Below, piece after piece: positions 1 through 63,718 of a stretch of DNA of 64,000 nucleotides. Below the pieces are notes generated by a model, which was not told the origin of the DNA, made no database searches, and saw only the letters and a program-made list of their open reading frames with translations. Numbering within the stretch: the stretch's first letter is position 1; every line of letters begins with the position of its first letter. The DNA is from Torpedo marmorata (taxonomy: Eukaryota), in NCBI GenBank assembly GCA_977017645.1, contig OZ360244.1:40362001-40426000 (forward strand). Reading direction: 5' to 3'. Both the position numbers and the translations under genes were made by a program.

Positions 1-1011
1 TGATTGAGAAATTAGGAGAAGATTTGATTGCTCCAAGACATAATGAGTTAGAATTATTAATAACGAAAGCAAATATTAATAAGTTTATTTCTCAAATGTA
101 TAAATTATTTCAGAGAAAAATGCTTAAAGTAGGATTACATAAATCAAGATTAAAATGGGAATTAGATTTAAATATTAATATAGCTGAAAATCATTGGAAA
201 GATTTATGTAAGTTAAGTATGACTAAAGTCATTAATGTTAGATATAGATTAGTACAATATAATTTTTTCCATCAACTATATTTAACACCAAAAAAATTAA
301 AGAAATTTAATCCGACATTGTCGGATCTGTGTTTTAGATGTAAGAATGAAGTAGGTTCTTTTGTTCATTCTACATGGCTATGTCCAAAGATTCAGGATTT
401 TTGGTTGAAAGTTAAGAATTTTTTAGATAGAGTTTTTAACGTTATGTTTCCAATGGACCCTATGTTATTTCTATTTGGAGATATTAGAAAATTTAGTATT
501 AGGAATAGATTGAATATGTATCAGGTAGAATTTTTGCGAATTGCTTTAGCTGTCTCAAAAAAATATATTGCTATTACTTGGAAATCAGATTTAGATTTAA
601 GTTTAGATAGGTGGCATGCAGAACTTCGTTCGTGTATTCCTTTGGAAAAGATTACTTACAACTTACATAATAAATATCATTCTTTTTTAAAAATTTGGAG
701 CCCATATATGAGAATTATGGGTTTAAGGATTTGAAATCTCTAGAAATCAGGTCTATCGGCGAGTTTAACCTCCAGGATAGAATAAGATTTTAGATGGTTC
801 TCTCCTCACTATTAATCTATTAATCTATTTTTCTTTTTCTTTCTTTTTTTTAAACTATTTTTAGAATAGTGGGGTGGGGGGGGGGTTAGGGTGGGGTGGG
901 AGGGTTTGGGGGAGGAAATTTATATCACTTGTATTTTGGAAACTATATATTTTGATTTGTGTATTGTGTGATTTAAAATTTAAATAAAATAATAAAAAAA
1001 AAAAAAAAAAA
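1..1011 (+). mobile_element. L1-clade LINE 3' end, copy 1 of the triplicated insertion (cut by the window start)
   Basis: ORF2 C-terminus with the cysteine-rich CFRC...H...C motif, G-rich 3' UTR and poly(A), followed by the TSD agaaattctgcctgcc at 1012. Confidence 0.93.
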
Positions 1012-1176
1012 AGAAATTCTGCCTGCCCCACAGGAAAAAGAATCTCAGGGTTGTATGTGATGTCATGTATGTACTCTGACAAGAAAGCTGAAATATGAAC
1101 TTTGAACAATTAAACTTTGTGTAGAGATTGCGGAGAAAAAGCTTTGGGTTAACTAAACCTATTTGCATTTGAGCAG

Positions 1177-1290
1177 GGACTGAAACAACCGTTCAGGTGA
1201 CAACAGCGGGAACGACTCCATCAGAAACTTCAACATTAACAAGCACGACAGTTGTTTCCACGTCACCCACCGGAACACCAACCACAGAAG
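1177..1290 (+). CDS. Exon A of unit 1 (phase 1-1): (G)TETTVQVTTAGTTPSETSTLTSTTVVSTSPTGTPTTE
   Basis: gagcAG acceptor at 1175-1176 and GAAG|GTAACG donor at 1291; 2+111+1 = 114 nt; Thr-rich translation. Confidence 0.85.
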
Positions 1291-7200: not shown

Positions 7201-10200
7201 ATAAGTGGAATTCTAAACTACTATTAGTAAAAAAGGAAAATTCACCGATTATTAAACATTTGTTGGAAATATGGACACAGGTAGATAAAGAAATAGGTGG
7301 GAAAGGATTAATTTCTTTAAATATGCCATTATATCAAAATCCACTTTTATTATTTACTATGAATAATCAATTATTGAAAGTATGGTTTCAAAAAGGAATT
7401 AAGAATTTTAAAGATTGTTTTGAGGCTGGAAGATTTGTTACGTTTCAAAGATTGAAGGAAAAATTTAATGTATTAGATAATATATGGTTATCTTATTATC
7501 AAGTTAAGACTTTTTTGATTGAGAAATTAGGAGAAGATTTGATTGCTCCAAGACATAATGAGTTAGAATTATTAATAACGAAAGCAAATATTAATAAGTT
7601 TATTTCTCAAATGTATAAATTATTTCAGAGAAAAATGCTTAAAGTAGGATTACATAAATCAAGATTAAAATGGGAATTAGATTTAAATATTAATATAGCT
7701 GAAAATCATTGGAAAGATTTATGTAAGTTAAGTATGACTAAAGTCATTAATGTTAGATATAGATTAGTACAATATAATTTTTTCCATCAACTATATTTAA
7801 CACCAAAAAAATTAAAGAAATTTAATCCGACATTGTCGGATCTGTGTTTTAGATGTAAGAATGAAGTAGGTTCTTTTGTTCATTCTACATGGCTATGTCC
7901 AAAGATTCAGGATTTTTGGTTGAAAGTTAAGAATTTTTTAGATAGAGTTTTTAACGTTATGTTTCCAATGGACCCTATGTTATTTCTATTTGGAGATATT
8001 AGAAAATTTAGTATTAGGAATAGATTGAATATGTATCAGGTAGAATTTTTGCGAATTGCTTTAGCTGTCTCAAAAAAATATATTGCTATTACTTGGAAAT
8101 CAGATTTAGATTTAAGTTTAGATAGGTGGCATGCAGAACTTCGTTCGTGTATTCCTTTGGAAAAGATTACTTACAACTTACATAATAAATATCATTCTTT
8201 TTTAAAAATTTGGAGCCCATATATGAGAATTATGGGTTTAAGGATTTGAAATCTCTAGAAATCAGGTCTATCGGCGAGTTTAACCTCCAGGATAGAATAA
8301 GATTTTAGATGGTTCTCTCCTCACTATTAATCTATTAATCTATTTTTCTTTTTCTTTCTTTTTTTTAAACTATTTTTAGAATAGTGGGGTGGGGGGGGGT
8401 TAGGGTGGGGTGGGAGGGTTTGGGGGAGGAAATTTATATCACTTGTATTTTGGAAACTATATATTTTGATTTGTGTATTGTGTGATTTAAAATTTAAATA
8501 AAATAATAAAAAAAAAAAAAAAAAAAGAAATTCTGCCTGCCCCACAGGAAAAAGAATCTCAGGGTTGTATGTGATGTCATGTATGTACTCTGACAAGAAA
8601 GCTGAAATATGAACTTTGAACAATTAAACTTTGTGTAGAGATTGCGGAGAAAAAGCTTTGGGTTAACTAAACCTATTTGCATTTGAGCAGGGACTGAAAC
8701 AACCGTTCAGGTGACAACAGCGGGAACGACTCCATCAGAAACTTCAACATTAACAAGCACGACAGTTGTTTCCACGTCACCCACCGGAACACCAACCACA
8801 GAAGGTAACGACAAAGTCAAATATTGATGAAAATTATGATGTGGATGTTGATTTTAAGAAGATGTAACGGAGAAACAGATCAGCTTCAATTGACCGTTTC
8901 TTTTACAACCGATCACTGGTGATGTGGGGTTGGACGTTGGATGGGGAAGGTAAATCTGACAAGATGCACAAATCTCACTCAAGGGTCCATATTTTTAACA
9001 GAAAGCACAACAAGTGGAGAGGAGTCAACGACGGGATCACCTTCCACTGAGAAACCAACAGTAACGAGCAGTCCGTCTGTATCAAGCCCATTCACAGGAT
9101 CCTCCTCTTCAGCAGGTAAATGGAAGAGATCAAAGCCCTTTGCTTAAATTTGTTCCTCAATTACTTCTGCGACAACTGAGAGTGCAGAACAAAACATAGA
9201 AGAGACGATTTAAAAACAAACCGGTCCACTGAAAACGGCGATTGTTAAAGGCTTTGTGCAGCATTTAGGGCAGAGGTTCAGCATGTAACCCTGATGAGGA
9301 CCAGAATGTTCGGAGTGGTAACAGGGATTAACGCGGGGAGCAATTGAAGGTTTACGATACACTTTGTGACAAGTATCAGAAATTTGACATTAAAGTGCAG
9401 CTTTTCTATAATTCTTGAACGATACCTTGACTGTACCAAATTACGTAATGTCCAGCATTTGCCACATATCAGTTGTTTTGATCACCTGTTGTGTAAAAAA
9501 CTATAGCGGCAACAATTGAAATATGCCTTTCCACTCCATTGGAAGGAAAGGCAACATTGGAAGGTCAGATGTCCCATTGTGGCTCCAATCTATGAGTTCC
9601 TGAGTCGCAGGAGAAGCTGCAGCTTCTGACAATGTGTTTTCCAAATCTGGACTCTGATTACAATTGGAAAACTTAACGCACTCAACACTAACATTAGAAA
9701 TTCTGCCAGCCCCGCAGGAAAAAGAATCTCAGGGTTGTATGTGATATCATGTATGTACTCTAACAATAAATCTGAATTATGAATTTTGAACAATTTAAAG
9801 TTTGTGCAGAGATTGCAGAGAAAAAGCTTTGAGTTAACAAAACCTACCGGTATTTGTGATTGAACAGGGTCTGAAACAACTATTCAGGAGACAACAGAGG
9901 GAACGTCATCATTAGAAACTTCAACATTAACAAGCACGACAGTTGTTTCCACTTCACTCACCGGAACACCAACCACAGAAGGTAACGAGAAAGTCAAATA
10001 TTGATGAAATTCAGGGCGTGGATGTTGATTTTAAGGAGATGTAACGGACAAACAGATCAGCTTCAATTGACCGTTTCTTTTACAACCGATCACTGGTGCT
10101 GTGGGGTTAAACATTGGATGGGGAAGGTTTATCTGACATGATACACAAATCTCACTCAAGGATTCATATTTTTAACAGAAAGCACAACAAGTGGAGAGCA

Positions 10201-13200
10201 GTCAACGATGGGATCACCTTCCACTGAGAAACCAACATCAACGAGCAGTCCGTTTGTTTCAAGCTCAATCACAGGATCCTCCTCTTCAGCAGGTAAATGG
10301 AAGAGATCAAAGCCCTTTCCCCGAATTTGTACCTCAATTACCTTTGCGAGAATTGAGAGTGCAGAACAAAACATAGAAGAGACAATTTAAAAACAAACCG
10401 GTCCACTGAAAACAGCGATAGTTAAAGGCTTTGTGCAGCAGTTAGGGCAGAGGTTCAGCATGTAACCCCGATGAGGACCAGAATGTTCAGGGTGGTCACA
10501 GGGATTAACGCGGGGAACCATTGAAGAATTTCGATGCACTTTGTGACAAGTATCAGAAGTTTGACATTAACGTGCAGCTTTTCCTGTAATTCTTGAACAT
10601 TACCTTGTGTGTGCTAAATGACATAATGTCCAGTATTTGCCACATATCAGTTGTTTTGATCGCCTGTTGGCTAAAAAATCTGTATAGCACCAGCAATTGA
10701 AATGCACCTCTCCACTCCACTGCAAAGAAAGGCAACATTGGAAGGTCAGATGTCCCGTTGTGGCTCCAATCTATGAGTTCCTGAGTCGCAGGAGAAACTG
10801 CAGCTTCTGACAATGTGTTTTCCGAACCTGGACTCTGATTACAATTGGAGAACTTAACGCACTCAACACTAACAGTAGAAATTCTGCCTGTCCCGCAGGA
10901 AAAAACAATCTCAGGGTTGTATGTGATATCATCTTTTTTTTTTTTTTTTTTAAATATTTTATTTAAAATTTTTAAATCACACAATACACAGTTTAAAATG
11001 CAAATTCCTCAAATTACATGTGATACATTTTCACCCCCCCTCCCCCCACCCTCCCCTCCCTAACCCTCCCGAAAAGAAAGAAAGAAGAAGAAAAGGATAG
11101 AGTAAGGAGAATGTCAATCTAAAAAGAACAACTATAAACTGATCTTATTGTGGAGGATAGGCTCGCCAGCCAGACCCGATGTCCAGAGATCTTCAAATCC
11201 TTAAACCCACAATTTTTATATATGGGCTCCATACTTCCAAAAAGAAATGATACTTATCACGTAAATTATATGTAATTTTTTCGAGTGGTATGCAAGAACG
11301 CAATTCTGCGTGCCATCTTTCCAACCCCAAATCTACATCCGACTTCCATGTAGTGGCAATACATTTCTTAGAAACAGCCAAAGCAACACGCAAAAACTCC
11401 GTCTGGTACATATTCAATTTCACTCCAACACTGGTTCCTTCAATATCTCCAAACAAAAATATCATAGGATCCATTGGAAGTGTAGTTCCTAATACTTTAT
11501 CTAAAAAGTTTTTAACTTTCAACCAAAAATCATAAACTTTTGGACAAAACCATGTAGAATGTACAAAATAACCTTCCTCTTTATTACATCTAAAACATAA
11601 ACCAGATAATGTCGGATTAAATTTCTTTAGTCTTTTAGGTGTTAAATATAGTTGATGAAAAAAATTATATTGCACCAATCTATATCTAACATTAATAATC
11701 TTCGTCATACTTTGTTTACATAATTTTTTCCAGTGTTCTTCATCTATTGTTATATTCAAATCTTTTTCCCAATTTAATCTTGATTTATGAATTCCTGTTT
11801 TAGGAAGTTTCCTCTGTAACAATCTGTACATTTGAGAAATAAATTTAGGCACACCTCCATTAGTAACTAATAATTCCAATTCAGTCTGTCTTGGTAAGAT
11901 CAAGCCGCGGCCCAACCTTTCCCCTAAAAACGCCCTAATTTGATAATAAGCAAAGATTGTATTATTTGCTACCCTAAATTTATCTTCCATTCTCTGAAAC
12001 GTAATAAATTTACCAGCTTCAAAACAATCATTTATTTCCTTAATTCCCTTTTGGTACCAAATTTTAAATAGTTGATTATCAACAGTAAATGGAATAAGTT
12101 CATTTTGATATAGAGGCATTCTTCGAGAAATTGATCCTTTCGCTCCTATTTCTCTATCCACTCTATTCCATATTTCTAGCAAGTGCCTAAAAATAGGAGA
12201 ATTTTTCCCTCTTGTTAATAATAATTTAGAATTCCATTTATAAATGACTTCTTCTTTCAAATCCTCTCCTATATTATTTAATTCTATTCTCATCCAAGCA
12301 GAGAGCTTCCCTAAATCAAACAATTCGTTAATAAATTTTAGTTGGGCTGCTTTATAATAATATTGAAAATTAGGAAGCTTTAGACCACCCATTTCGTAGT
12401 TCCAGGTTAATTTCTCCAATCCTACTCTCGCCAACTTTCCTTTCCACAAAAATGTCCTAATAATTAAATTTAAATCCTTAAAAAACTTCTGAGGGATTTC
12501 ATAGGGAATTGATTGAAAAAGATACTGAATTCTCGGAAAAACGTTCATTTTAATACAATTTACCCTTCCCATTAAAGTTATAGGCAAATCCTTCCATCTC
12601 TCCAAATCCTTTTTTATATTCACAAATAGTGGTAAATAATTTAATTTATACAAATTGGATAATTTTGTATCAATCTTTATTCCCAAATACTTAATTCCTC
12701 CCTTTGCCCATTTAAATTGTGTAATTTCTTTACAATCGCTATAGTCCCCTTGTGTTAAAGGCATAATTTCACTTTTATCCGAGTTAATCTTGTAACCAGA
12801 TATTCCCCCAAATTCTTTCAATAAAACAGACAATTGTGTTAGAGAATTAATAGGTTCTGTCATATATATCAATACGTCATCTGCAAACAAACTAATTTTG
12901 TGTTCTTCCTTACCAACTTTAATACCTGCAATCTTACTATCTTGTCTAATTAATTCGGCTAAAGGTTCTATTGCTAAAACAAACAATGCTGGCGACAAAG
13001 GACAACCTTGTCTAGTAGATCTGGTTAAGGAAAATTTTGAAGATATTTGACCATTTGTGACCACTCTGGCAGACGGTTCTTTATATATAGTTTTAATCCA
13101 ATTAATAAATGTATTTCCAAAACCAAATTTTTCCAATACCTTAAATAAATAATTCCACTCTAATCTATCAAAAGCCTTTTCGGCATCTAATGTTAATACT

Positions 13201-49200: not shown

Positions 49201-52200
49201 TCCACTAAAAACGGCGATTGTTAAAGGCTTTGTGCAGCAGTTGGGGCAGAGTTTCAGCATGTAACCCCGATGAGGACCAGAATGTTCGGCGTGGTCACAG
49301 GGATTTATGCCGGGAGAAATTGAAGGTTTTTGAAACACTTTGTGGCAAGTATCATAAATTTGATATTAACTTTCAGCTTTTCCGTAATTCTTGGACGTTA
49401 CCTTGTGTGTGCCAAATGACGTAATGTCCAGCATTTGCCACATATCAGTTGTTTTGATCACCTGTTGGCTAAAAAATCTATAAAGCACCAGCTATTGAAA
49501 TGCACCTTTCCACTCCACTGCAAAGTAAGGCAACATTGGAAGGTCAGATGTCCCGTTGTGGCTCCAATCTATGAGTTCCTGAGTCGCAGGAGAAGCTGCA
49601 GTTTCTGACAATGTGTTTTCCGAACCTGGACTCTGATTACAATTGGAAACATTAACACACTCAACACAAACAGTAGAAATTCTGCCTCGCCTGCAGGAAA
49701 AAGAATCTCAGGGTTGTATGTGATGTCATGTATCCACTCTGACAATAAATCTGAACTATGAACTTTGAACAATTTAAAGTTTGAGCAGAGATGCGGAGAA
49801 AAAGCTTTGGGTTAACTAAACCTATTTGCATTTGAACAGGGTCCGAAACAACCGTTCAGGTGACAACAGCGGGAACGACTCCATCAGAAACTTCAACATT
49901 AACAAGTACGACAGTTGTTTCCACGTCACCCACCGGAACACCAACCAGGGAAGGTAACGACAAAGTCAAATATCGATACAAATCAGGGCGTGGATGTTGA
50001 TTTTAACGTGATGTAACGGAGAAACAGATCAGCTTCAATTGACCGTTTCTTTTACAACCGATCACTGGTGCTGTGGGGTTGGACGTTGGATGGGGAAGGG
50101 AAATCTGACAAGATGCACAAATCTCACTCAAGGGTCCATATTTTTAACAGAAAGCACAACAAGTGGAGAGCAGTCAACGACAGAATCACCTTCCACTGAG
50201 AAACCAACATCAACGAGCACTCCGTCTGTTTCAAGCTCATTCACAGGATCCTCCTCTTCAGCAGGTAAATGGAAGAGATCAAAGCCCTTTACCCATATTT
50301 GTACCTCAATTACCATTGCGAGAATTGAGAGTGCAGAACGAAACATAGAAGTGACGATTTAAAAACAAACAGTTACACTGAAAACGGCGATAGTTAAAGG
50401 CTTTGTGCAGCAGTTAGGGCAGAGTTTCAGCATGTAACCCCGATGAGGACCAGAATGTTCAGGGTGGTCACAGGGATTAACGCGGGGAGCAATTGAAGGT
50501 TTACGATACACTTTGTGACAAGTATCAGAAATTTGACATTAACGTACAGCTTTTCTGTAATTCTTCAACGATACCTTGTCTTTGCCAAATGACGTAATGT
50601 CCAGCATTTGCCACAAATTAGTTGTTTTGATCGCCTGTTGGCTGTAAAACTATAGAAGCAGCAATTGAAATGCACCTTTCAACTCCATTTGAAGGAAAGG
50701 CAAGATTCGAAGGTCAGATGTCCCATTGTGGCTCCAATCTATGAGTTCCTGAATCGCAGGAGAAGCTGCAGCTTCTGACAATGTGTTTTCCAAATCTGGA
50801 CTCTGATTACAATTGGAAAACTTAACGCACTCAACACAAACATTAGAAATTCTGCCTGCCCCGCAGGAAAAAGAATCTCATGGTTGTATGTGATGTCATT
50901 TATGTAATCTGACAATAAATCTGAATTATGAATTTTGAACAATTTAAAGTTTGTGCAGAGATTGCGGAGAAAAAGCTTTGGGTTAACAAATCCTATTTGC
51001 ATTTGAACAGGGTCTGAAACAACCGTTCAGGTGACAACAGCGGGAACGACTCCATCAGAAACTTCAACATTAAAAAGCACGACAGTTGTTTCCACTTCAC
51101 TCACTGGAACACCAACCACAGAAGGTAACGAGAAAGTCAAATATTGATGAAATTCAGGGCGTGGATGTTGATTTTAAGGAGATGTAACGGAGAAACAGAT
51201 CAGCTTATATTGACCGTTTCTTTTACAACCGATCACTGGTGATGTGGGGTTGGACATTGGATGGGGAAGTTAATCTGACAAGATGCACAAATCTCACTCA
51301 AAGATTCATATTTTTAACAGAAAGCACAACAAGTGGAGAGCAGTCAACGACGGGATCACCTTCCACTGAGAAACCAACAGCAACGAGCAGTCCGTTTGTT
51401 TCAAGCTCAATCACAGGATCCTCCTCTTCAGCAGGTAAATGGAAGAGATCAAAGCCCTTTCCCCAAATTTGTTCCTCAATCACTTCTGCGACAACTGAGA
51501 GTGCAGAACAAAACATAGAAGAGACGATTTAAAAACAAACAGTTACACTGAAAACGGCGATAGTTAAAGGGTTTGTGCAGCAGTTAGGGCAGAGTTTCAG
51601 CATGTAACCCCGATGAGGACCAGAATGTTCAGGGTGGTCACAGGGATTAACGCCGGGAGCAATTGAAGGTTTACGATACACTTTGTGACAAGTATCAGAA
51701 ATTTGACATGGATGTGCAGCTTTTCCATAATGCTTGAACGATACCTTGTATTTGTCAAATGACGTAATGTCCAGCATTTGCCACAAATTAGTTGTTTTGA
51801 TCACCTGTTTGCTATAAAACTAAAGCGGCAGCAATTGAAATGCACCTCTCCACTCCATTGGAAGGTCAGATGTCCCATTGTGGCTCCAATCTATGAGTTC
51901 CTGAATCGCAGGAGAAGCTGCAGCTTCTGACAATGTGTTTTCCGCATCTGGACTCTGATTACAATTGGAAAACTTAACGCACTCAACACAAACATTAGAA
52001 ATTCTGCCTCGCCTGCAGGAAAAAGAATCTCAGGGTTGTATGTGATGTCGTATATGTACTCTGACAATAAAGCTGAAATATGAACTTTGAACAATTTAAA
52101 CTTTGTGTAGAGATTACGGAGAAAAAGCTTTGGGTTAACTAAACCTATTTGCATTTGAACAGGGTCTGAAACAACCGTTCAGGTGACAACAGCGGGAACG

Positions 52201-55200
52201 ACTCCATCAGAAACTTCAACATTAACAAGCGCGACAGTTGTTTCCACGTCACACACTGGAACACCAACCACAGAAGGTAACGACAAAGTCAAATATTGAT
52301 GAAAATCATGATGTGGATGTTGATTTTAAGGAGATGTAACGGACAAACAGATAGCTTCAATTGACTGTTTCTTTTGAAACCTATCGCTGGTGCTGTGGGG
52401 TTGGACGTTGGATGGGGAAGGTAAATCTGACACGATGCACAAATCTCACTCAAGGGTCCATATTATTAACAGAAAGCACAACAAGTGGAGATCAGTCAAC
52501 GACAGAATCACCTTCCACTGAGAAACCAACAGTAACGAGCAGTCCATCTGTTTCAAGCTCATTCACAGGATCCTCCTCTTCAGCAGGTAAATGGAAGAGA
52601 TCAAAGCCCTTTGCTTAAATTTGTTCCTCAATTACTTCTGCGACAACTGAGAGTGCAGAACAAAACATAGAAGAGACGATTTAAAAACAAACCGGTCCAC
52701 TGGAAACGACGATAGTTAAAGGCCTTGTGCAGCAGTTAGGGCAGAAGTTCAGCATGTAACCCCGATGAGGACCAGAATGTTCGGAGTGGTAAAGGGATTA
52801 ACTCGGGGAGCAATTGAAGGTTTACGATACACTTTGTGACAAGTATCAGAAATTTGACATTAACGTGCAGCTTTTCTATAATTCTTGAACGATACCTTGT
52901 CTTTGCCAAATGACATAATGTCCAGCATTTGCCACATATCAGTTGTTTTGATCGCCTGTTGTGTAAAAAACTATAGCGGCAACAATTGAAATGCACCTTT
53001 CCACTCCATTGGAAGGAAAGGCAACATTGGAAGGTCAGATGTCCTGTTGTGGCTCCAATCTATGAGTTCCTGAGTCGCAGGAGAAGATGTAACTTCTGAC
53101 AATTTGTTTTCCAAATCTGGACTCTGATTACATTTGGAGAACTTAACACACTCAACACTAATAATAGAATTTCTGCCTGCACCGCAGGAAAAAGAATCTC
53201 AGGGTTGTATGTGATGTCATGTATCCACTCTAACAATAAATCTGAATTATGAATTTTGAACAATTTAAAGTTTGTGCAGAGATTGCAGAGAAAAAGCTTT
53301 GAGTTAACAAAACCTACCGGTATTTGTGATTGAACAGGGTCTGAAACAACTATTCAGGAGACAACAGAGGGAACGTCATCATTAGAAACTTCAACATTAA
53401 CAAGCACGACAGTTGTTTCCACTTCACTCACCGGAACACCAACCACAGAAGGTAACGTGAAAGTCAAATATTGATGAAATTCAGGGTGTGGATGTTGATT
53501 TTAAGGAGATGTAACGGAGAAACAGATCAGCTTCAATTGACCGTTTCTTTTGCAACCGATCACTGGTGATGTGGGGTTGGACGTTGGATGGGGAAGGGAA
53601 ATCTGACACGATGCACAAATCTCACTCGAGGGTTCATATTTTTAACAGAGAGCACAATAAGTGGAGAGCAGTTAATGACGGGATCACCTTCCACTGAGAA
53701 ACCAACATCAACGAGCAGTCCGTCTGTTTCAAGCCCATTCACAGGATCCTCCTCTTCGGCAGGTAAATGGAAGAGATCAAAGCCCTTTCCCCAAATTTGT
53801 TCCTCAATTACTTCTGCGACAACTGAGAGTGCAGAACAAAATATAGAAGAGACGATTTTAAAACAAACAGTTACACTGAAAACGGCGATAGTTAAAGGCT
53901 TTGTGCAGCAATTAGGGCAGAGTTTCAGCATGCAACCCAAATGAGGACCAGAATGTTCGGGACGGTCACAGGGATTAACTCGGGGAACCATTGAAGAATT
54001 TCGATGCACTTTGTGATAAGTATCAGAAGTTTGACATTAACGTGCAGCTTTTCCATAATTCTTGAACGTTACCTTGTCTGTTCCAAATGACGAAATGTCC
54101 AGCATTTGCCACATATCAGTTGTTTTGATCACCTGTTGTGTAAAAAACTATAGCGTCAACAATTGAAATGCACCTTTCCACTCCATTGCAAAGAAAGGCA
54201 ACATTGGAAGGTCAGATGTCCCATTGTGGCTCCAATCTATGAATTCCTGAGTCGCAGGAGAAGCTGCAGCTTCTGACAATGTGTTTTCCAAATCTGGACT
54301 CTGATTACAATTGGAGAACTTAACGCACTCAACACTAACAGTAGAAATTCTGCCTGGCCCGCAGGAAAAAACAATCTCAGGGTTGTATGTGATGTCGTGG
54401 ATGTAATCTGACAATAAATCTGAACTATGAACTTTGAACAATTTAAACTTTGTGCAGAGATTGCGGAGAAAAAGCTTTGGGTTAACAAAACCTATTTGCA
54501 TTTGAACAGGGTCCGAAACAACCGTTCAGGTGACAACAGCGGGAACGACTCCATCAGAAACTTCAATATTAACAAGTACGACAGTTGTTTCCACGTCACC
54601 CACTGGAACACCAACCATGGAAGGTAACGAGAAAGTCAAATATTGATGAAAATCAGGGTGTGGATGTTGATTTTAAGCAGATGTAACGGAGAAACAGATC
54701 AGCTTCAACTGACCGTTTCATTTGCAACCGATCACTGGTGCTGTGGGGTTGGACGTTGGATGGGGAAGGGAAATCAGACAAGATGCACAAATCTCACTCA
54801 AAGGTCCATATTTTTAACAGAAAGCACAACAAGTGGAGAGCAGTCAATGACGGGATCACCTTCCACTGAGAAACCAACAGCAACGAGCAGTCCTTCTCTT
54901 TCAAGCTCATTCACAGGATCCTCCTCTTCAGCAGGTAAATGGAAGAGATCAAAGCCCTTTCCCAAAATTTGTACCTCAATTACCTTTGCGAGAATTGAGA
55001 GTGCAGAACAAAACATAGAAGAGACAATTTAAAAACAAACCGGTCCACTGAAAACAGCGATAGTTAAAGGCTTTGTTCAGCAGTTAGGGTAGAGGTTCAG
55101 CATGTAACCCCGATGAGGACCAGAATGTTCAGGGTGGTCACAGGGATTAACTCGGGGAACCATTGAAGAATTTCGATACACTTTGTGACAAGTATCAGAA

Positions 55201-58200
55201 GTTTGACATTAACGTGCAGCTTTTCCACAATTCTTGAACGTTACCTTGTGTGTGCCAAATGACGTAATGTCCAGTATTTGCCACATATCAGTTGTTTTGA
55301 TCACCTGTTGGCTAAAAAACTATAGCGGCAACAATTGAAATGCACCTTTCCACTCCACTGAAAAGAAAGGTAACATTGGAAGGTCAGATGTCCCATTGTG
55401 GCTCCAATCTATGAGTTCCTGAGTCGCAGGAGAAACTGCAGCTTCTGACAATGTGTTTTCCGAATCTGGACTCTGATTACAATTGGAGAACTTAACGCAC
55501 TCAACACTAACGGTAGAAATTCTGCCTGGCCCGCAGGAAAAAACAATCTCAGGGTTGTATGTGATATCATGTATTTAATCTGACAATAAATCTGAACTAT
55601 GAACTTTGAACAATTTAAACCTTGTGCAGAGATTGCGGAGAAAAAGCTTTGGGTTAACAAAATCCTACTTGCATTTGAACAGGGTCTGAAACAACCGTTC
55701 AGGTGACAACAGCGGGAACGACTCCATCAGAAACTTCAACATTAACAAGTACGACACTTGCTTCCACTTCACTCACTGGAACACCAACCACAGAAGGTAA
55801 CGACAAGGTCAAATATTGATGAAATTCAGGGTGTGGATGTTGATTTTAAGGAGATGTAACGGAGAAACAGATCAGCTTCAATTGACCGTTTCTTTTACAA
55901 CCGATCACTGGTGCTGTGGGTTTGGACGTTGGATGGGGAAGGTAAATCTGACATGATGCACAAATCTCACTCAAGGATTCATATTTTTAACAGAAAGCAC
56001 AACAAGTGGAGAGCAGTCAATGACGGGATCACCTTCCACTGAGAAACCATCAGCAACGAGCAGTCCGTTTGTTTCAAGCTCAATCACAGGATCCTTCTCT
56101 TCAGCAGGTAAATGGAAGAGATCAAAGCCCTTTCCCCAAATTTGTACTTCAATTACCTTTGCGAGAATTGAGAGTGCAGAACAAAACATATAAGAGATGA
56201 TTTAAAAACAAACAGTTACACTGAAAATGGCGATTGTTAAAGGATTTGTCCAGCAGTTAGGGCAGAGGTTCAGCATGTAACCCCGATGAGGACCAGAATG
56301 TTCAGGGTGGTCACAGGGATTAACGCGGGGAGCAAATGAAGGTTTACGATACACTTTGTGACAAGTATCAGAAATTTGACATGGACGTGCAGCTTTTCCA
56401 TAATGCTTGAACGATACCTTGTATTTGCCAAATGACGTAATGTCCAGCATTTGCCACAAATTAGTTGTTTTGATCGCCTGTTGGCTATAAAACTATAGAG
56501 GCAGCAATTGAAATGCACCTTTCCACTCCATTTGAAGGATAGGCATGATTTGAAGGTCAGATGTCCCATTGTGGCACCAATCTATGAGTTCCTGAATCGC
56601 AGGAGAAGCTGCAGCTTCTGACAAAGTGTTTTCCAAATCTGGACTCTGATTACAATTGGATAACTTAACGCACTCAACACAAACATTAGAAATTCTGCCT
56701 GCCCCGCAGGAAAAAGAATCTCAACGTTGTATGTGATGTCGTGTATGTACTCTGACAATAAAGCTGAAATATGAACTTTGAACAATTTAAACTGTGTGCA
56801 GAGATTGCGGAGAAAAAGCTTTGGGTTAACTAAACCTATTTGCATTTGAACAGTGTCTGAAACAACCGTTCAGGTGACAACAGCGGGAACGACTCCATCA
56901 GAAACTTCAACATTAACAAGCACGACAGTTGTTTCCACGTCACCCACTGGAACACCAACCACAGATGGTAACGACAAAGTCAAATATTGATACAAATCAG
57001 GGTGTGGATGTTGATTTTAAGCATATGTAACGGAGAAACAGATCAGCTTGAATTGACCGTTTCTTTTGCAACCGATCACTGGTGCTGTGGGGTTGGACGT
57101 GGCATGGGGAAGGAAAATCTGACATGATGCACAAATCTCACTCAAGGGTCCATATTTTTAACAGAAAGCTCAACAAGTGGAGAGCTGTCAACGACGGGAT
57201 CACCTTCCACTGAGAAACCAACAGCAACGAGCAGTCCGTCTGTTTCAAGCTCATTCACAGGATCCTCCTCTTCAGCAGGTAAATGGAAGAGATCAAAGCC
57301 CTTTCCCCAAATTTGTTCCTCAATCACTTCTGCGACAACTGAGAGTGCAGAACAAAACATAGAAGAGACAATTTAAAAACAAACCGGTCCACTGAAAACG
57401 GCGATAGTTAAAGGCTTTGTGCAGCAGTTAGGGCAGAGATTCAGCATGTAACCCCGATGAGGACCAGAAGATTCAGGGTGGTCACAGGGATTAACGCCGG
57501 GAGCAATTGAAGGTTTACGATACACTTTGTGACAAGTATCAGAAATTTGACATGGACGAGCAGCTTTTCCATAATGCTTGAACGATACCTTGTATTTGCC
57601 AAATGACGTAATGTCCAGCATTTGCCACAAATTAGTTGTTTTGATCACCTGTTTGCTATAAAACTAAAGCGGCAGCAATTGAAATGCACCTTTCCACTCC
57701 ATTGGAAGGTCAGATGTCCCATTGTGGCTCCAATCTATGAGTTCCTGAATCGCAGGAGAAGCTGCAGCTTCTGACAATGTGTTTTCCGCATCTGGACTCT
57801 GATGACAATTGGAAAACTTAACACACTCAACACAAACATTAGAAATTCTGCCTGTCCCGCAGGAAAAAGAATCTCAGGGTTGTATGTGATGTCGTGTTTG
57901 TACTCTGACAATAAAGCTGAAATATGAACTTTGAACAATTTAAACTTTGTGCAGAGATTGCGGAGAAAAAGCTTTGGGTTAACTAAACCTATTTGCATTT
58001 GAACAGGGTCTGAAACAACCGTTCAGGTGACAACAGCGGGAACGACTAAATCAGAAACTTCAACATTAACAAGCACGACAGTCGTTTCCACGTCACAAAC
58101 TGGAACACCAACCACAGAAGGTAACGACAAAGTCAAATATTGATGAAAATCATGATGTGGATGTTGATTTTAAGGAGATGTAACGGACAAACAGATAGCT

Positions 58201-61200
58201 TCAATTGACTGTTTCTTTTGAAACCTATCGCTGGTTCTGTGGGGTTAAACGTTGGATGGGGAAAGGAAATCTGACACGATGCACAAATCTCACTCGAGGG
58301 TTCATATTTTTAACAGAAAGCACAATAAGTGGAGAGCAGTCAATGACGGGATTACCTTCCACTGAGAAACCAACATCAACGAGCAGTCCGTCTGTTACAA
58401 GCTCATTCACAGGATCCTCCTCTTCAGCAGGTAAATGGAAGAGATCAAAGCCCTTTCCCCAAATTTGTTCCTCAATTACTTCTGCGACAACTGAGAGTGC
58501 AGAACAAAACATAGAAGAGACGATTTAAAAACAAACAGTTACACTGAAAACAGCGATTGTTAAAGGGTTTGTGCAGCAGTTAGGGCAGAGGTTCAGCATG
58601 TAACCCCGATGAGGACCAGAATGTTCGGAGTGGTCACAGGGATTAACTCGGGGAACCATTGAAGAATTTCGATACACTTTGTGACAAGTATCAGAAGTTT
58701 GACATTAACGTGCAGCTTTTCCACAATTCTTGAACGTTACCTTGTGTGTGCCAAATGACGTAATGTCCAGTATTTGCCACATATCAGTTGTTTTGATCAC
58801 CTGTTGGCTAAAAAACTATAACGGCAACAATTGAAATGCACCTTTCCACTCCACTGAAAAGAAAGGTAACATTGGAAGGTCAGATGTCCCATTGTGGCTC
58901 CAATCTATGAGTTCCTGAGTCGCAGGAGAAACTGCAGCTTCTGACAATGTGTTTTCCGAATCTGGACTCTGATTACAATTGGAGAACTTAACGCACTCAA
59001 CACTAACGGTAGAAATTCTGCCTGGCCCGCAGGAAAAAACAATCTCAGGGTTGTATGTGATATCATGTATTTAATCTGACAATAAATCTGAACTATGAAC
59101 TTTGAACAATTTAAACCTTGTGCAGAGATTGCGGAGAAAAAGCTTTGGGTTAACAAAATCCTACTTGCATTTGAACAGGGTCTGAAACAACCGTTCAGGT
59201 GACAACAGCGGGAACGACTCCATCAGAAACTTCAACATTAACAAGTACGACACTTGCTTCCACTTCACTCACTGGAACACCAACCACAGAAGGTAACGAC
59301 AAGGTCAAATATTGATGAAATTCAGGGTGTGGATGTTGATTTTAAGGAGATGTAACGGAGAACCAGATCAGCTTCAATTGACCGTTTCTTTTACAACCGA
59401 TCACTGGTGCTGTGGGTTTGGACGTTGGATGGGGAAGGTAAATCTGACATGATGCACAAATCTCACTCAAGGATTCATATTTTTAACAGAAAGCACAACA
59501 AGAGGAGAGCAGTCAATGACGGGATCACCTTCCACTGAGAAACCATCAGCAACGAGCAGTCCGTTTGTTTCAAGCTCAATCACAGGATCCTTCTCTTCAG
59601 CAGGTAAATGGAAGAGATCAAAGCCCTTTCCCCAAATTTGTACTTCAATTACCTTTGCGAGAATTGAGAGTGCAGAACAAAACATATAAGAGATGATTTA
59701 AAAACAAACAGTTACACTGAAAATGGCGATTGTTAAAGGATTTGTCCAGCAGTTAGGGCAGAGGTTCAGCATGTAACCCCGATGAGGACCAGAATGTTCA
59801 GGGTGGTCACAGGGATTAACGCGGGGAACAAATGAAGGTTTACGATACACTTTGTGACAAGTATCAGAAATTTGACATGGACGTGCAGCTTTTCCATAAT
59901 GCTTGAACGATACCTTGTATTTGCCAAATGACGTAATGTTCAGCATTTGCCACAAATTAGTTGTTTTGATCGCCTGTTGGCTATAAAACTATAGAGGCAG
60001 CAATTGAAATGCACCTTTCCACTCCATTTGAAGGATAGGCATGATTTGAAGGTCAGATGTCCTATTGTGGCACCAATCTATGAGTTCCTGAATCGCATGA
60101 GAAGCTGCAGCTTCTGACAAAGTGTTTTCCAAATCTGGACTCTGATTACAATTGGATAACTTAACGCACTCAACACAAACATTAGAAATTCTGGCTGCCC
60201 CGCAGGAAAAAGAATCTCAACGTTGTATGTGATGTCGTGTATGTACTCTGACAATAAAGCTGAAATATGAACTTTGAACAATTTAAACTGTGTGCAGAGA
60301 TTGCGGAGAAAAAGCTTTGGGTTAACTAAACCTATTTGCATTTGAACAGTGTCTGAAACAACCGTTCAGGTGACAACAGCGGGAACGACTCCATCAGAAA
60401 CTTCAACATTAACAAGCACGACAGTTGTTTCCACGTCACCCACTGGAACACCAACCACAGATGGTAACGACAAAGTCAAATATTGATACAAATCAGGGTG
60501 TGGATGTTGATTTTAAGCATATGTAACGGAGAAACAGATCAGCTTGAATTGACCGTTTCTTTTGCAACCGATCACTGGTGCTGTGGGGTTGGACGTGGCA
60601 TGGGGAAGGAAAATCTGACATGATGCACAAATCTCACTCAAGGGTCCATATTTTTAACAGAAAGCTCAACAAGTGGAGAGCAGTCAACGACAGGATCACC
60701 TTCCACTGAGAAACCAACATCAACGAGCAGTCCGTCTGTTTCAAGCTCATTCACAGGATCCTCCTCTTCAGCAGGTAAATGGAAGAGATCAAAGCCCTTT
60801 CCCCAAATTTGTTCCTCAATCACTTCTGCGACAACTGAGAGTGCAGAACAAAACATAGAAGAGACAATTTAAAAACAAACCGGTCCACTGAAAACGGCGA
60901 TAGTTAAAGGCTTTGTGCAGCAGTTAGGGCAGAGATTCAGCATGTAACCCCGATGAGGACCAGAAGATTCAGGGTGGTCACAGGGATTAACGCCGGGAGC
61001 AATTGAAGGTTTACGATACACTTTGTGACAAGTATCAGAAATTTGACATGGACGTGCAGCTTTTCCATAATGCTTGAACGATACCTTGTATTTGCCAAAT
61101 GACGTAATGTCCAGCATTTGCCACAAATTAGTTGTTTTGATCACCTGTTTGCTATAAAACTAAAGCGGCAGCAATTGAAATGCACCTTTCCACTCCATTG

Positions 61201-63718
61201 GAAGGTCAGATGTCCCATTGTGGCTCCAATCTATGAGTTCCTGAATCGCAGGAGAAGCTGCAGCTTCTGACAATGTGTTTTCCGCATCTGGACTCTGATG
61301 ACAATTGGAAAACTTAACACACTCAACACAAACATTAGAAATTCTGCCTGTCCCGCAGGAAAAAGAATCTCAGGGTTGTATGTGATGTCGTGTATGTACT
61401 CTGACAATAAAGCTGAAATATGAACTTTGAACAATTTAAACTTTGTGCAGAGATTGCGGAGAAAAAGCTTTGGGTTAACTAAACCTATTTGCATTTGAAC
61501 AGGGTCTGAAACAACCGTTCAGGTGACAACAGCGGGAACGACTAAATCAGAAACTTCAACATTAACAAGCACGACAGTCGTTTCCACGTCACAAACTGGA
61601 ACACCAACCACAGAAGGTAACGACAAAGTCAAATATTGATGAAAATCATGATGTGGATGTTGATTTTAAGGAGATGTAACGGACAAACAGATAGCTTCAA
61701 TTGACTGTTTCTTTTGAAACCTATCGCTGGTTATGTGGGGTTAAACGTTGGATGGGGAAAGGAAATCTGACACGATGCACAAATCTCACTCGAGGGTTCA
61801 TATTTTTAACAGAAAGCACAATAAGTGGAGAGCAGTCAATGACGGGATCACCTTCCACTGAGAAACCAACATCAACGAGCAGTCCGTCTCTTACAAGCTC
61901 ATTCACAGGATCCTCCTCTTCAGCAGGTAAATGGAAGAGATCAAAGCCCTTTCCTTAAATTTGTTCCTCAATTACTTCTGCGACAACTGAGAGTGCAGAA
62001 CAAAACATAGAAGAGACGATTTAAAAACAAACAGTTACACTGAAAACGGCGATTGTTAAAGGGTTTGTGCAGCAGTTAGGGCAGAGGTTCAGCATGTAAC
62101 CCCGATGAGGACCAGAATGTTCGGAGTGGTAACAGGGATTAACTCGGGGAGCAATTGAAGGTTTACGATACACTTTGTGACAAGTATCAGAAATTTGACT
62201 TTTTTTTTTTTTTTTTGAATATTTTATTTAAAATTTTAAATCACAAAATACATTATATAAATCGCAAAATTATCAAAATACATGTGATATATTTTCTCCC
62301 TCCCAACCACCCTCCCCACCCTAACCCCCCCACCCCTCCCTAACCCTCCCACCCCTACTAATCTATAAAATAAAATAAAATAAAGTAAAGAAAGGAAAAA
62401 GAAAAACTAAGGAGATTGCCAATCTAAACTAAAAAATAACTATGAACTAAAATTTTGTGGAAATTAGGTTACCAGCCTGATCCAATGTTCAGAGATTTTC
62501 AAATTTTTATTTTTAAGCCGACCAATTTTATATATGGGCTCCATACTTTCAAAAAGAAATGATATTTATTACGTAAATTATAAGTAATTTTTTCAAGTGG
62601 TATACAAGAACGAAGTTCTGCGTGCCACCTTTCTAAACCTAAATCTACATCAGATTTCCAAGTGATAGCGATACATTTCTTAGCAACCGCTAAAGCAATT
62701 CTCAAAAACTCAATTTGATACATATTTAAATTCATCATAATACTAATTCTTTTAATATCCCCAAATAAAAATATCATCGGATCCATTGGAAGTACATTTC
62801 TTAATACTTTGTCAGAGAACGTGCAGCTTTTCTATAATTCTTGAACGATACCTTGTCTTTGCCAAATGACATAATGTCCAGCATATGCCACATATCAGTT
62901 GTTTTGATCACCTGTTGTGTAAAAAACTATAGCGGCAACAATTGAAATGCACCTTTCCACTCCATTGGAAGTAAAGGCAACATTGGAAGGTCAGATGTCC
63001 CATTGTGGCTCCAATCTATGAGTTCCTGAGTCGCAGGAGAAGATGTAACTTCTGACAATTTGTTTTCCAAATTTGGACTCTGATTACATTTGGAGAACTT
63101 AACACACTCAACACTAATAATAGAAATTCTGCCTGCACCGCAGGAAAAAGAATCTCAGGGTTCCATGTGATGTCATATATGTACTCTAACAATAAATCTG
63201 AATTATGAATTTTGAACAATTTAAAGTTTGTGCAGAGATTGCAGAGAAAAAGCTTTGAGTTAACAAATCCTACCCGTATTTGTGATTGAACAGGGTCTGA
63301 AACAACTATTGAGGAGACAACAGAGGGAACGTCATCATTAGAAACTTCAACATTAACAAGTACGACAGTTGTTTCCACGTCACTCACCGGAACACCAACC
63401 ACAGAAGGTAAGGAGAAAGTCAAATATTGATGAAATTCAGTGTGTGGATGTTGATTTTAAGGAGATGTAACGGAGAAACAGATCAGCTTCCATTGACCGT
63501 TTCTTTTACAACCGATCACTGGTTCTGTGGGGTTGGACGTTGGATGGGGAAGGTAAATCTGACATGATGCACAAATCTCACTCAAGGATTCATATTTTTA
63601 ACAGAAAGCACAACAAGTGGAGAGCAGTCAACGACGGGATCACCTTCCACTGAGAAACCAACAGCAACGAGCAGTCCGTTTGTTTCAAGCTCAATCACAG
63701 GATCCTCCTCTTCAGCAG
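1177..63718 (+). CDS. Internal part of a large spliced gene encoding a mucin-like Ser/Thr/Pro-rich tandem domain; 30 units of exon A (114 nt) + exon B (114 nt), 76 aa per unit
   Basis: Exon A starts (each 114 nt): 1177, 4933, 8691, 9868, 16972, 18133, 31254, 32425, 33597, 34769, 35941, 37111, 42810, 43981, 45152, 46325, 47496, 48667, 49840, 51011, 52163, 53338, 54510, 55683, 56854, 58007, 59179, 60350, 61503, 63294. Exon B starts (each 114 nt): 1488, 5244, 9002, 10179, 17283*, 18444, 31564*, 32735, 33908, 35080, 36252, 37422, 43120, 44292, 45463, 46636, 47807, 48978, 50151, 51321, 52473, 53649, 54821, 55994, 57165, 58317, 59490, 60661, 61813, 63605 (* = mutated acceptor). Typical flanks are tttgaacAG|A|GTaacg and tttttaacAG|B|GTaaat. 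No stops or indels were seen in the exons read, whereas the introns carry indels. Confidence 0.85.
1488..1601 (+). CDS. Exon B of unit 1 (phase 1-1): (E)STTSGEESTTGSPSTEKPTVTSSPSVSSPFTGSSSSA
   Basis: tttttaacAG acceptor at 1486-1487 with an upstream CTCAC branch-like motif, and GCAG|GTAAAT donor at 1602; 114 nt; 197-nt intron from exon A. Confidence 0.85.
2196..4767 (+). mobile_element. 5'-truncated L1-clade LINE, copy 2 (RT region, disrupted)
   Basis: Motifs YRPISLLN, LDAEKAFD, RQGCPLSP and FADD; frameshift near 2570-2583 and TAG at 3432-3434; poly(A); 16-bp TSD agaaattctgcc(a/t)gcc at 2180-2195 and 4768-4783; target TT|AGAAA. Confidence 0.95.
5952..8525 (+). mobile_element. 5'-truncated L1-clade LINE, copy 3
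   Basis: Near-identical to 2196-4767 at an offset of 3756, with the same junctions and the same lesions (stops ending at 6339 and 7190). Confidence 0.95.
11193..14981 (-). CDS. L1 ORF2p: APE endonuclease, reverse transcriptase and C-terminal cysteine-rich domain (1262 aa)
   Basis: SININGLN, LQETH, GGDFN, SRIDMF and SDH (endonuclease); YRPISLLN, RQGCPLSP and FADD (RT); CFRC..H..C; uninterrupted frame. Confidence 0.96.
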   Translation of the reverse strand: MADSKLINVVSININGLNNPIKRKKTLAYIKKLKADIALLQETHLTDLEHQKLKRDWVGQVVASSFNSKAKGVAILVNKKLPLKIHSVVTDGSGRYVLINCQIYSEMWTLMNIYVPNTQDDQFIQDSFMHLSEAYDNILIGGDFNCCLDPVMDKTSKSIIRTKTAKRILTMMEDLNLTDIWRKLNPREKDYSFYSSRHDSYSRIDMFLLSSQLQDRVTQVQYKARLISDHSPLLMLCIIPEKEKIIYKWRFNSSLLKRVDFCKYIRREIQEFLQINTDSMDNKFIIWDALKAYLRGQIISYSAKVKKENIQEFDNLEKEIEFLEKDLQKKRSEEKKKDLIGKKLYYNTLQTHKLEKLIERTKQRYYELGERAHKVLAWQLKKEQTSRTITAIKKNSKKITYKPREINDSFKDFYLNLYTSQAEKDDSKINTFLSKIKMPRLDTLSKESLDSPFTMREVDGVLSSLTSGKSPGEDGFPSEFYKKFKDLLIPPYMEVLKQITETHSLPESFTNALITVIPKRDRDLLRTESYRPISLLNVDYKIMAKILANRVAKFLPVLVHGDQAGFIRNRYSKDNIARLISLINVAQQREELSLVLTLDAEKAFDRLEWNYLFKVLEKFGFGNTFINWIKTIYKEPSARVVTNGQISSKFSLTRSTRQGCPLSPALFVLAIEPLAELIRQDSKIAGIKVGKEEHKISLFADDVLIYMTEPINSLTQLSVLLKEFGGISGYKINSDKSEIMPLTQGDYSDCKEITQFKWAKGGIKYLGIKIDTKLSNLYKLNYLPLFVNIKKDLERWKDLPITLMGRVNCIKMNVFPRIQYLFQSIPYEIPQKFFKDLNLIIRTFLWKGKLARVGLEKLTWNYEMGGLKLPNFQYYYKAAQLKFINELFDLGKLSAWMRIELNNIGEDLKEEVIYKWNSKLLLTRGKNSPIFRHLLEIWNRVDREIGAKGSISRRMPLYQNELIPFTVDNQLFKIWYQKGIKEINDCFEAGKFITFQRMEDKFRVANNTIFAYYQIRAFLGERLGRGLILPRQTELELLVTNGGVPKFISQMYRLLQRKLPKTGIHKSRLNWEKDLNITIDEEHWKKLCKQSMTKIINVRYRLVQYNFFHQLYLTPKRLKKFNPTLSGLCFRCNKEEGYFVHSTWFCPKVYDFWLKVKNFLDKVLGTTLPMDPMIFLFGDIEGTSVGVKLNMYQTEFLRVALAVSKKCIATTWKSDVDLGLERWHAELRSCIPLEKITYNLRDKYHFFLEVWSPYIKIVGLRI
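15365..16723 (-). CDS. L1 ORF1p (Transposase_22-like RNA-binding protein with coiled coil, RRM and CTD)
   Basis: LENQSRRNNIKIVGLPE, LELDRAHR and YPATLRV motifs; first ATG at 16723 (the ORF track extends it to an upstream GTG at 16744). Confidence 0.92.
   Translation of the reverse strand: MSSKRMKEGKLKKTVLRESLGQEKNRPTLLLEPREQAPLPPRKTQKKTAKVPGAPTPPSRGTGENGAGARSCKELQLPVGPLPADPLRMRGTTRMREDVRELSATADSDSSTLMLSCEAEQGILTSADPGKRRREEQEEHEGEEGLQEMEREGEEEESDEEEAPMLLGGQELAKSMIEAMDRLTKEVASLNQRMQYGFKAIREEIKAVKEDMKKHSDIVDKVSSRVKKIEEKVEEHDEDLVDYKDRVDKVEDSFTGWELQKNELLQKLDVLENQSRRNNIKIVGLPEDFEGTNPTTFFQDWIPQTLGKDHFPNGLELDRAHRDSRRKPYPDQRPRSILIRCLRYQDKEKILKLAIQKARIQQGPLRIDKSRVFFYADLSSVIIKKRKEFNPAKAVLWGKGYKFSFRYPATLRVQSAENQPMFFTDPQEALRHANRLPDSKKGQGSTERHQTI
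19147..21913 (-). mobile_element. 5'-truncated, frameshifted L1 inserted into the CR1
   Basis: ORF2 fragments closely related to the triplicated L1; TSD aatctctcctactctt at 19131-19146 and 21914-21929; target TT|AAGA on the minus strand. Confidence 0.93.
22951..23480 (-). repeat. BEL 3' LTR (530 bp)
   Basis: Direct repeat of 29484-30015; termini TGTAAG...GTAATA on the minus strand. Confidence 0.92.
23893..29026 (-). pseudogene. BEL polyprotein pseudogene: SAP-like N-terminus, Gag, zinc knuckles, protease, then a MIPOL1-like coiled coil
   Basis: ORFs 27764-29089, 27488-27712 and 26249-27445 share one frame and are separated by point stops. After removing the L1 at 24850-26282 and one TSD, the frame continues through a single TAA into ORF 23893-24723. 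SAP-like motif: IEDMKVADIKEELKRLKKDIRGNKRVLIERL. Confidence 0.8.
24850..26282 (+). mobile_element. 5'-truncated L1 inserted into the BEL element
   Basis: ORF2 C-terminus (24878-25963), G-rich 3' UTR and A-tail; 17-bp TSD aatgttgttttaaatac at 24833-24849 and 26283-26299. Confidence 0.94.
29484..30015 (-). repeat. BEL 5' LTR (~532 bp)
   Basis: Direct repeat of 22951-23480 with a few substitutions; termini TGTAAG...AATCTA on the minus strand. The inner boundary is uncertain by about 3 nt. Confidence 0.9.
37930..38180 (+). repeat. Gypsy 5' LTR
   Basis: TGTGGTAAAC...GGCCTATCA; about 4 substitutions relative to the 3' LTR, counted by eye. Confidence 0.95.
38206..42088 (+). pseudogene. Gypsy gag-pol, one ORF broken by a 4-bp duplication
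   Basis: Knuckle CSSCGKKGHYAKAC, protease LFDTGS, RT YLDD, RNase H DAS..E..TD, integrase HHCC and DDE core (SIDF..HSDRG..VER). GTGC is duplicated at 38635-38642; removing one copy restores ...YVRQRLLE. Confidence 0.9.
42202..42452 (+). repeat. Gypsy 3' LTR
   Basis: Direct repeat of 37930-38180, immediately after the PPT. Confidence 0.95.
62200..62817 (-). mobile_element. Short L1 3'-end fragment
   Basis: T-run from 62200, C-rich (G-rich on the minus strand) UTR and the last ~95 aa of ORF2; no TSD, and about 3 bp of target (ATT) are missing. Confidence 0.92.

Follow-up and report, generated by a model that had tools for sequence, protein, structure and literature searches.

A 224-kb tandem array in Torpedo marmorata as the predicted multi-exon PTS domain of a MUC3/MUC12/MUC17-family transmembrane mucin gene

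The array and its exons

The window analysed here is a 64-kb stretch of the 6.2-Gb genome of Torpedo marmorata (C58:40362001-40426000, plus strand, where C58 stands for the numbering of contig OZ360244.1); coordinates without this prefix and of up to five digits are positions in the window. Sequence was read over 864 kb around it. Alignment to a reference unit places 30 A and 30 B segments of 114 nt each in the window, in units of ~1.15–1.17 kb, the full units being 90–96% identical to the reference unit (Table 1). A scan for AG-114 nt-GT segments that are Ser/Thr-rich and open in phase 1 recovered 58 segments. Thus 58 of the 60 have AG and GT ends and are open in phase 1-1, and two B copies have lost the acceptor, carrying GG and AA in its place. 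The initial annotation had described 60 exons; there are indeed 60 segments of 114 nt, but with two dead B acceptors the count reads 58 intact exons and two that are probably skipped. The translations that it gave for A and B are those found, and a recount by hand again gives 45 Ser or Thr among the 76 residues of the A+B consensus. Its intron indels lie where it had placed them, but measure 13 nt (~17710) and 18 nt (~51860, 57700 and 61200), not 14 and 19.

The array reaches far outside the window and spans 224 kb (C58:40318896-40543128) in a region without Ns. It contains 235 exon-like segments, of which 116 are intact A, 111 intact B, seven broken and one a longer open variant of 195 nt located at the end. 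The broken segments comprise four splice-site losses, one exon split by a 6-kb insertion (counted as two segments) and one remnant; by the count from the gene model, six A exons have no intact B partner. The exon copies encode 59 distinct A and 86 distinct B peptides, and the diversity among copies is 0.060–0.071 in exons versus 0.078–0.083 in introns. Exons A and B share 63 of 114 bases, versus 40 in codon shuffles. Tandem Repeats Finder did not detect the array, to which it is blind because the period exceeds 500, and Pfam found no domain in exons A or B.

Transposon insertions make up ~29 kb of the window, all of it intronic. They include a full-length 5.9-kb LINE with a polyA tail in a long intron (10933-16856, minus strand), in which both ORF1 (461-aa frame) and ORF2 (1,302-aa frame; endonuclease and reverse transcriptase) are open, and an LTR retrotransposon (37927-42458, plus strand) whose 252-nt LTRs share 98.4% identity and whose protease-RT-RNaseH-integrase frame of 1,172 aa is open and Ty3/Gypsy-like in domain order. 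A 12-kb nested insertion (18837-30781) holds LINE fragments of at least two kinds together with an element that has 529-nt direct repeats (22952-23480 and 29487-30015; 98.3%) and a SAP-domain frame. At window positions 1-9711, a 3.76-kb block made of one unit and a 2.57-kb LINE 3' fragment is tandemly repeated at 98.5–99.4% identity; insertions have been amplified together with units, and the expansion is therefore recent. Outside the window, at C58:40479373 and 40498852, insertions lie 6 nt before an A exon, and the duplicated target site restores the acceptor downstream and leaves the exon intact. Copies of an 80–90-nt stretch near the end of each long intron are also scattered over both strands beyond the array; the cassette thus includes part of an interspersed repeat.

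The gene model

An in-silico model joins the array to unique exons on both flanks (Table 1). It comprises 240 exons and 27,309 nt over 282 kb and encodes 9,102 aa with one terminal stop, and its phases chain unbroken. The PTS part accounts for 8,715 aa in ~229 exons, with 57% Ser and Thr, 7% Pro and one Cys. The stalk of at least 2,280 aa given by the initial annotation covered the window only and is superseded by a predicted ~8,700 aa over the full array. The same annotation had named a lack of unique flanking exons in compatible phase as evidence against a gene and had suggested annotating the flanks; such exons were found on both sides, all outside the window, with a signal exon upstream and EGF, SEA, EGF, TM and tail exons downstream.

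The signal peptide, a hydrophobic first exon of 30 aa, was judged by eye. Pfam matches SEA exon 1 at E=1.8e-4, which is under the cut-off as a fragment, and the SEA of the Narcine orthologue at E=8.5e-11. The motif GSIIV differs by one conservative change from the GS[V/I]VV-type consensus, cleaved after Gly (PMC13643018), and is common among relatives. Cys-rich exons flank the SEA on both sides; the Pfam match to EGF is weak (E=0.018), and the EGF assignment rests on the Cys pattern and homology. The hydrophobic stretch of the TM exon scores 3.1. The array gene has only one SEA, and there is no VWD exon among the exons of the model, which run from the signal exon through the array to EGF-SEA-EGF-TM. 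The model ends in -DCDY, without a class I PDZ motif; an alternative last exon is possible. A polyA-type hexamer lies ~47 nt past the last tail exon. A candidate micro-exon of 16 nt near C58:40561500 is not part of the model, as including it would break the phase chain.

Table 1. Coordinates of the repeat exons in the window and of the unique exons of the gene model (all repeat exons 114 nt)
Feature	Position	Strand	Remark
Array share of the window, 30 units, 58 intact exons	1177..63718	+	part of 224-kb array
Unit	A 1177-1290, B 1488-1601	+	phase 1-1
Unit	A 4933-5046, B 5244-5357	+	within repeated 3.76-kb block
Two units, 8691..10292	A 8691-8804, B 9002-9115; A 9868-9981, B 10179-10292	+	
Two units, 16972..18557	A 16972-17085, B 17283-17396; A 18133-18246, B 18444-18557	+	B 17283-17396: acceptor GG, likely skipped
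Six units, 31254..37535, A exons	starts 31254, 32425, 33597, 34769, 35941, 37111	+	
Six units, 31254..37535, B exons	starts 31564, 32735, 33908, 35080, 36252, 37422	+	B 31564-31677: acceptor AA, likely skipped
Seventeen units, 42810..61926, A exons	starts 42810, 43981, 45152, 46325, 47496, 48667, 49840, 51011, 52163, 53338, 54510, 55683, 56854, 58007, 59179, 60350, 61503	+	34 intact exons with B
Seventeen units, 42810..61926, B exons	310-311 nt after respective A start	+	
Unit	A 63294-63407, B 63605-63718	+	
ATG exon, hydrophobic core (signal exon)	C58:40315305-40315395	+	out phase 1; 5' of array
Unique PTS exon	C58:40559562-40559636	+	1-1; 3' of array
EGF-like exon	C58:40564467-40564568	+	1-1
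SEA exon 1	C58:40566420-40566538	+	1-0
SEA exon 2	C58:40567760-40567818	+	0-2
SEA exon 3, motif GSIIV	C58:40581779-40581918	+	2-1
Linker exon	C58:40584185-40584253	+	1-1
Second EGF-like exon	C58:40586511-40586673	+	1-2
TM exon	C58:40590710-40590871	+	2-2
Tail exon	C58:40591975-40592066	+	2-1
Tail exon	C58:40594999-40595066	+	1-0
Last tail exon	C58:40596921-40597019	+	0 to stop

Relatives and family identity

In the second EGF exon, identity to a mucin-17-like protein of Narcine bancroftii (XP_069771473.1) is 87%. This predicted model of 470 aa matches the array-gene model at 72% identity over 465 columns, A/B repeats included; it starts with ~2.7 B- and A-type repeats in frame with EGF-SEA-EGF-TM and ends in -FHNS. 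Among 127 candidates it was the only longer protein matching exon A. HMMER returned 340 relatives at E up to 0.001, of which 150 were listed. Twenty relatives were looked up among the matches listed; 11 are named mucin-3A/3B/12/17(-like), eight have generic names, one is unnamed, and none of the 20 bears the name MUC13. The 11, whose names are automatic, come from a chimaera, sharks, rays, frogs, a lizard and mammals. When the orthologue was searched against PDB sequences, the sole matches were weak ones to complement C2, which were dismissed as chance.

A quick tree of 61 rows, with midpoint root, was built from the model and 60 further proteins, the best-scoring of those that were fetched and either cleared a coverage filter or were chosen manually; the neighbouring paralogue described below and MUC13 were left out. 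In it the array gene forms a clade (SH-aLRT 99) with the Narcine protein, a mucin-17-like protein of Mustelus asterias, Scyliorhinus torazame GCB78110.1 and Chiloscyllium punctatum GCC21518.1. The Scyliorhinus protein has alternating 38-aa units with a period of 76 (97% match), and its units in register with exon B agree at 18 of 38 residues, a score reached by 0 of 1000 shuffles. The Chiloscyllium protein has periods of 76 and 38, and the resemblance of its repeats to A or B is weak (p=0.2 and 0.02). In the Ser/Thr-rich N-termini of the 60 relatives, other best periods vary widely, and four more proteins have 38 or 76 in the top three, with matches of 0.37–0.57. The Narcine, Mustelus, Scyliorhinus and Chiloscyllium models differ from the array gene in their 220–496 aa, at most five repeats and no evident signal peptide, versus ~230 exons, and their likeness to it is at the level of protein models.

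Judged from these matches, the array gene is a membrane mucin of the MUC3/12/17 family and not a gel-forming one. The gel-forming mucins, with which the initial annotation had compared it, are therefore the wrong comparison for a SEA transmembrane gene. Because neither the model (-DCDY) nor the Narcine protein (-FHNS) has a class I PDZ motif at its C-terminus, the gene is filed as a variant co-orthologue and not as MUC17 itself; one-to-one orthology is not claimed.

Synteny and the neighbouring paralogue

The synteny test used ACHE and SERPINE1, with sequence read on either side of 41.03-44.15 Mb. The main coding exon of ACHE (C58:40187741-40189327, minus strand) lies 126 kb upstream of the array gene; it scores 1,110–1,162 bits with one group of solved structures and <790 with all others. 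The top AChE structures are Torpedo enzymes and, together with the identity to Narcine, make an electric ray the likely source. A serpin (C58:44156149-44165337, plus strand) lies 3.56 Mb downstream, and its best solved relatives are PAI-1 (E=2e-14, versus 2e-7 for glia-derived nexin). ACHE upstream and SERPINE1 downstream of the array gene is the human 7q22 arrangement. PMC9578598 has described ACHE-MUC3-MUC12-MUC17-TRIM56-SERPINE1 as a conserved unit and has suggested that the cluster arose in amphibians.

A second MUC3/17-family gene neighbours the array gene (C58:40629500-40686000, plus strand), with its own candidate first exon and EGF, SEA and TM exons. Its candidate single PTS exon (40644041-40649014) has 4,974 nt of 11-aa repeats. 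Its exons match a second elasmobranch group at 50–77%, and 11-aa repeats recur in the Carcharodon model of that group. This 5-kb PTS frame at 40.644 Mb was tried as part of the array gene and rejected: it is a separate gene, lying beyond the TM, tail and stop of the array gene and coming with a candidate first exon, EGF, SEA and TM of its own.

Further copies of mucin sequence were observed around the locus. Large inverted and direct duplications of both mucin genes, at 94–98% identity, occupy C58:40.72-40.99 Mb; in a first-exon copy there, the hydrophobic core contains Arg. A remnant of three array exons lies on the minus strand at C58:40721991-40723450, and a nearby last-exon copy has a stop and a frameshift, neither of which is present in the array gene's own last exon. 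Four tandem copies of an EGF exon lie at C58:40.958-40.968 Mb. On another contig, at C54:34.10-34.61 Mb, there is a long tandem array of SEA exons that is MUC16-like.

Evidence for coding

The numbers of stop, missense and synonymous variants expected in the exons were taken from substitution rates in the array's own introns, with variants counted as distinct. No stop-gain variant was observed versus 10.9 expected (P=1.9e-5); in the other five frames the observed and expected stops were 17/16.5, 3/5.6, 11/15.0, 5/5.5 and 9/10.1. Splice dinucleotides are broken in 0/116 A donors, 1/117 B donors, 3/116 B acceptors and 0/97 of the A acceptors scored, and the GT and AG inside the introns, used for comparison, are broken in a mean of 12–14% (medians 4–7%). 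Stop avoidance and splice-site conservation both span all 116–117 units, which speaks for translation of most copies at least on occasion. This bears on a reading in which the gene is real and the array little used, with most repeat exons skipped, or the signal exon spliced to the last few repeats, and a short mucin as the product. The Narcine, Scyliorhinus and Chiloscyllium models, which hold only 3–5 repeats (~2.7 in Narcine), would agree with a short mucin, as would the low score of the A splice sites in a simple matrix, and faithful splicing of 239 introns would be demanding. These database models look 5'-truncated, however, because no signal peptide is seen in them by eye, and we consider a mainly short product rather unlikely.

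Indels give a similar contrast. Sixty of the 61 distinct indels are intronic and one is exonic (3 nt, in-frame; P=3e-5). With homopolymer slips removed, there are 0 exonic versus 41 intronic frameshifting indels (P=1.4e-4), and 0 versus 20 that are common to at least two units (P=0.013). As the short intron has only 4 indels in its 197 nt, most of the contrast is owed to the long intron. Missense variants number 119 versus 141 expected and synonymous variants 51 versus 58 (omega ~0.96, P=0.43), and no class of amino-acid change besides stops is clearly avoided in the exons. The initial annotation had proposed to contrast dN/dS in exons and introns; dN/dS separates nothing here and was set aside as an uninformative coding test, whereas stops, indels and splice sites do separate them. 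Neutral missense change is expected of a PTS domain, yet it is in itself no support for coding. Avoidance of exons by transposons was likewise discarded as evidence, as 1 of 26 interruptions >500 nt (at ~18 distinct sites) lies in an exon, which is not significant.

An omega of ~1, exons only slightly less diverse than introns, and an unstable locus with inverted duplications and broken gene copies could also be left by an old, formerly coding two-exon cassette that was amplified into a now non-coding intronic satellite and looks intact only through recency. At 6–8% diversity among copies, however, the ~11 stop variants expected are all missing although the other frames are neutral, frameshifting exonic indels are absent, and the repeat period is retained in sharks; such a satellite is very improbable. 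That false duplication of units in the assembly has inflated the array, as the near-identical blocks in the first 9.7 kb of the window might suggest, is hardly credible given that exon copies differ by several percent on average, that the A and B peptides are so varied and that the region has no Ns, and it could shift the count slightly but not the architecture.

Overall, the exons are under purifying selection against stops, frameshifts and splice-site loss. The reading of the apparent satellite as a hidden gene has held, with unique in-phase exons on both flanks and with stops and frameshifts avoided relative to the introns; the stop and indel rates of the 114-nt segments, whose equality with the rest of the unit had been proposed as grounds for rejecting it, are lower.

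Comparison with known mucins

The array gene resembles human MUC3A, MUC3B, MUC12 and MUC17 (7q22) in the order of PTS, EGF-SEA-EGF, TM and tail, in a SEA cleavage-type motif and in its position between ACHE and SERPINE1 (PMC9578598, PMC13643018). Human MUC3A and MUC3B have been reported to have 12 exons with a single PTS exon, of 15.9 kb in MUC3A and 39.3 kb in MUC3B (PMC9578598); the array gene differs in its ~229 PTS exons, and its neighbouring paralogue has one candidate exon. Mammalian MUC3/12/17 members end in a class I PDZ motif, unlike the array-gene model. The MUC3B PTS has 13,089 aa (PMC9578598), so the stalk of the array gene is no length record.

One PTS repeat per exon has been described in a SEA transmembrane mucin before, in chicken Muc13 and its zebrafish homologue (PMC1552070). 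Chicken Muc13 is a different gene, next to HEG, whose gapped assembly shows 12 or more repeats, each of 20 aa (PMC1552070), whereas the array gene has 227 exons, each encoding 38 aa, from a cassette in which two exons alternate. The neighbour seen upstream of the array gene is ACHE. The same 2006 study has proposed control of length by splicing in multi-exon PTS domains and has called the design ancestral (PMC1552070). Xenopus tropicalis Otogl has a multi-exon mucin domain as in the array gene, but is gel-forming (PMC5789918). The repeats of chicken MUC2 extend across exons 32–45, with one in-frame splice variant seen; this gene too is gel-forming and has far fewer exons than the array gene (PMC3549977). 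The gel-forming MUC2/5/6/19 have VWD domains, a cystine knot and no TM, whereas the array-gene model has a TM and no VWD exons. MUC16 has many tandem SEA domains and the array gene one. In the literature outside subscription journals and supplements, neither the array gene nor any MUC3/12/17-family member with a multi-exon PTS was found described; PMC4948705 and PMC13345508 likewise yielded nothing on it. What is already known is the family and the design principle of multi-exon mucin stalks; new are the multi-exon PTS in the MUC3/12/17 family, its scale, how old the module seems to be, and the presence of the cluster in a cartilaginous fish.

Interpretation

We identify the array, with high confidence, as the PTS domain of a transmembrane mucin gene that belongs to the MUC3/MUC12/MUC17 family and looks intact. 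Its ~230 symmetric 114-nt exons are predicted to splice into a stalk of ~8,700 residues. The gene is also very likely functional. From what is known of the family, the protein would enter the secretory pathway and be O-glycosylated on its 57% Ser/Thr, its SEA would cleave itself between the Gly and Ser of GSIIV, and the mature protein would form a glycocalyx filament on an apical epithelial surface, likely in the gut. At ~0.25 nm per residue, the full stalk would be ~2 µm, versus the 1-µm glycocalyx given for MUC17. That analogue has an O-glycosylated stalk, a self-cleaving SEA and an apical filament in this 1-µm glycocalyx (PMC13643018).

The history of the array may have begun with duplication of one 114-nt exon into A and B, after which the A-intron-B-intron cassette would have been amplified and homogenised by unequal crossing-over. 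Repeat periods shared with sharks suggest that the duplication to a two-exon cassette predates the shark-ray split and that the length of the repeat was set by the exon boundaries. All exons are phase 1-1 with lengths divisible by three, so the loss or skipping of any exon is frame-neutral, and broken exons and transposons in introns are therefore tolerated by the array; the six A exons that lack an intact B and the intronic insertions of up to 12 kb in the window fit such symmetric exons. Regulated exon skipping is possible.

A wider scenario can be put forward tentatively, and may well prove wrong. The block of ACHE, MUC3 cluster and SERPINE1 would date from the jawed-vertebrate ancestor and not from amphibians. 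Sharks and rays would keep two designs side by side, one giant exon, the mammalian layout, with 11-aa repeats versus a 38-aa repeat locked by 114-nt exons since before the shark-ray split, and the 240-exon gene of the ray would have its filament length tuned within one animal by in-frame exon skipping.

Significance

That ACHE, mucin genes and SERPINE1 stand in this order in a ray speaks for a cluster that predates amphibians, in which PMC9578598 suggested that it arose, although genes of cartilaginous fish already bear mucin-3/17-like names in database annotations. The locus shows that an apparent 'satellite' of 224 kb within a large genome can consist of coding sequence, and the database models of its orthologues hold only the last 3–5 repeats. 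The MUC3/12/17 family gains a multi-exon design, and two opposite gene architectures of one family are found within one locus. The questions raised in 2006, whether the multi-exon PTS is ancestral and whether stalk length is set by splicing, thus become testable in one tissue.
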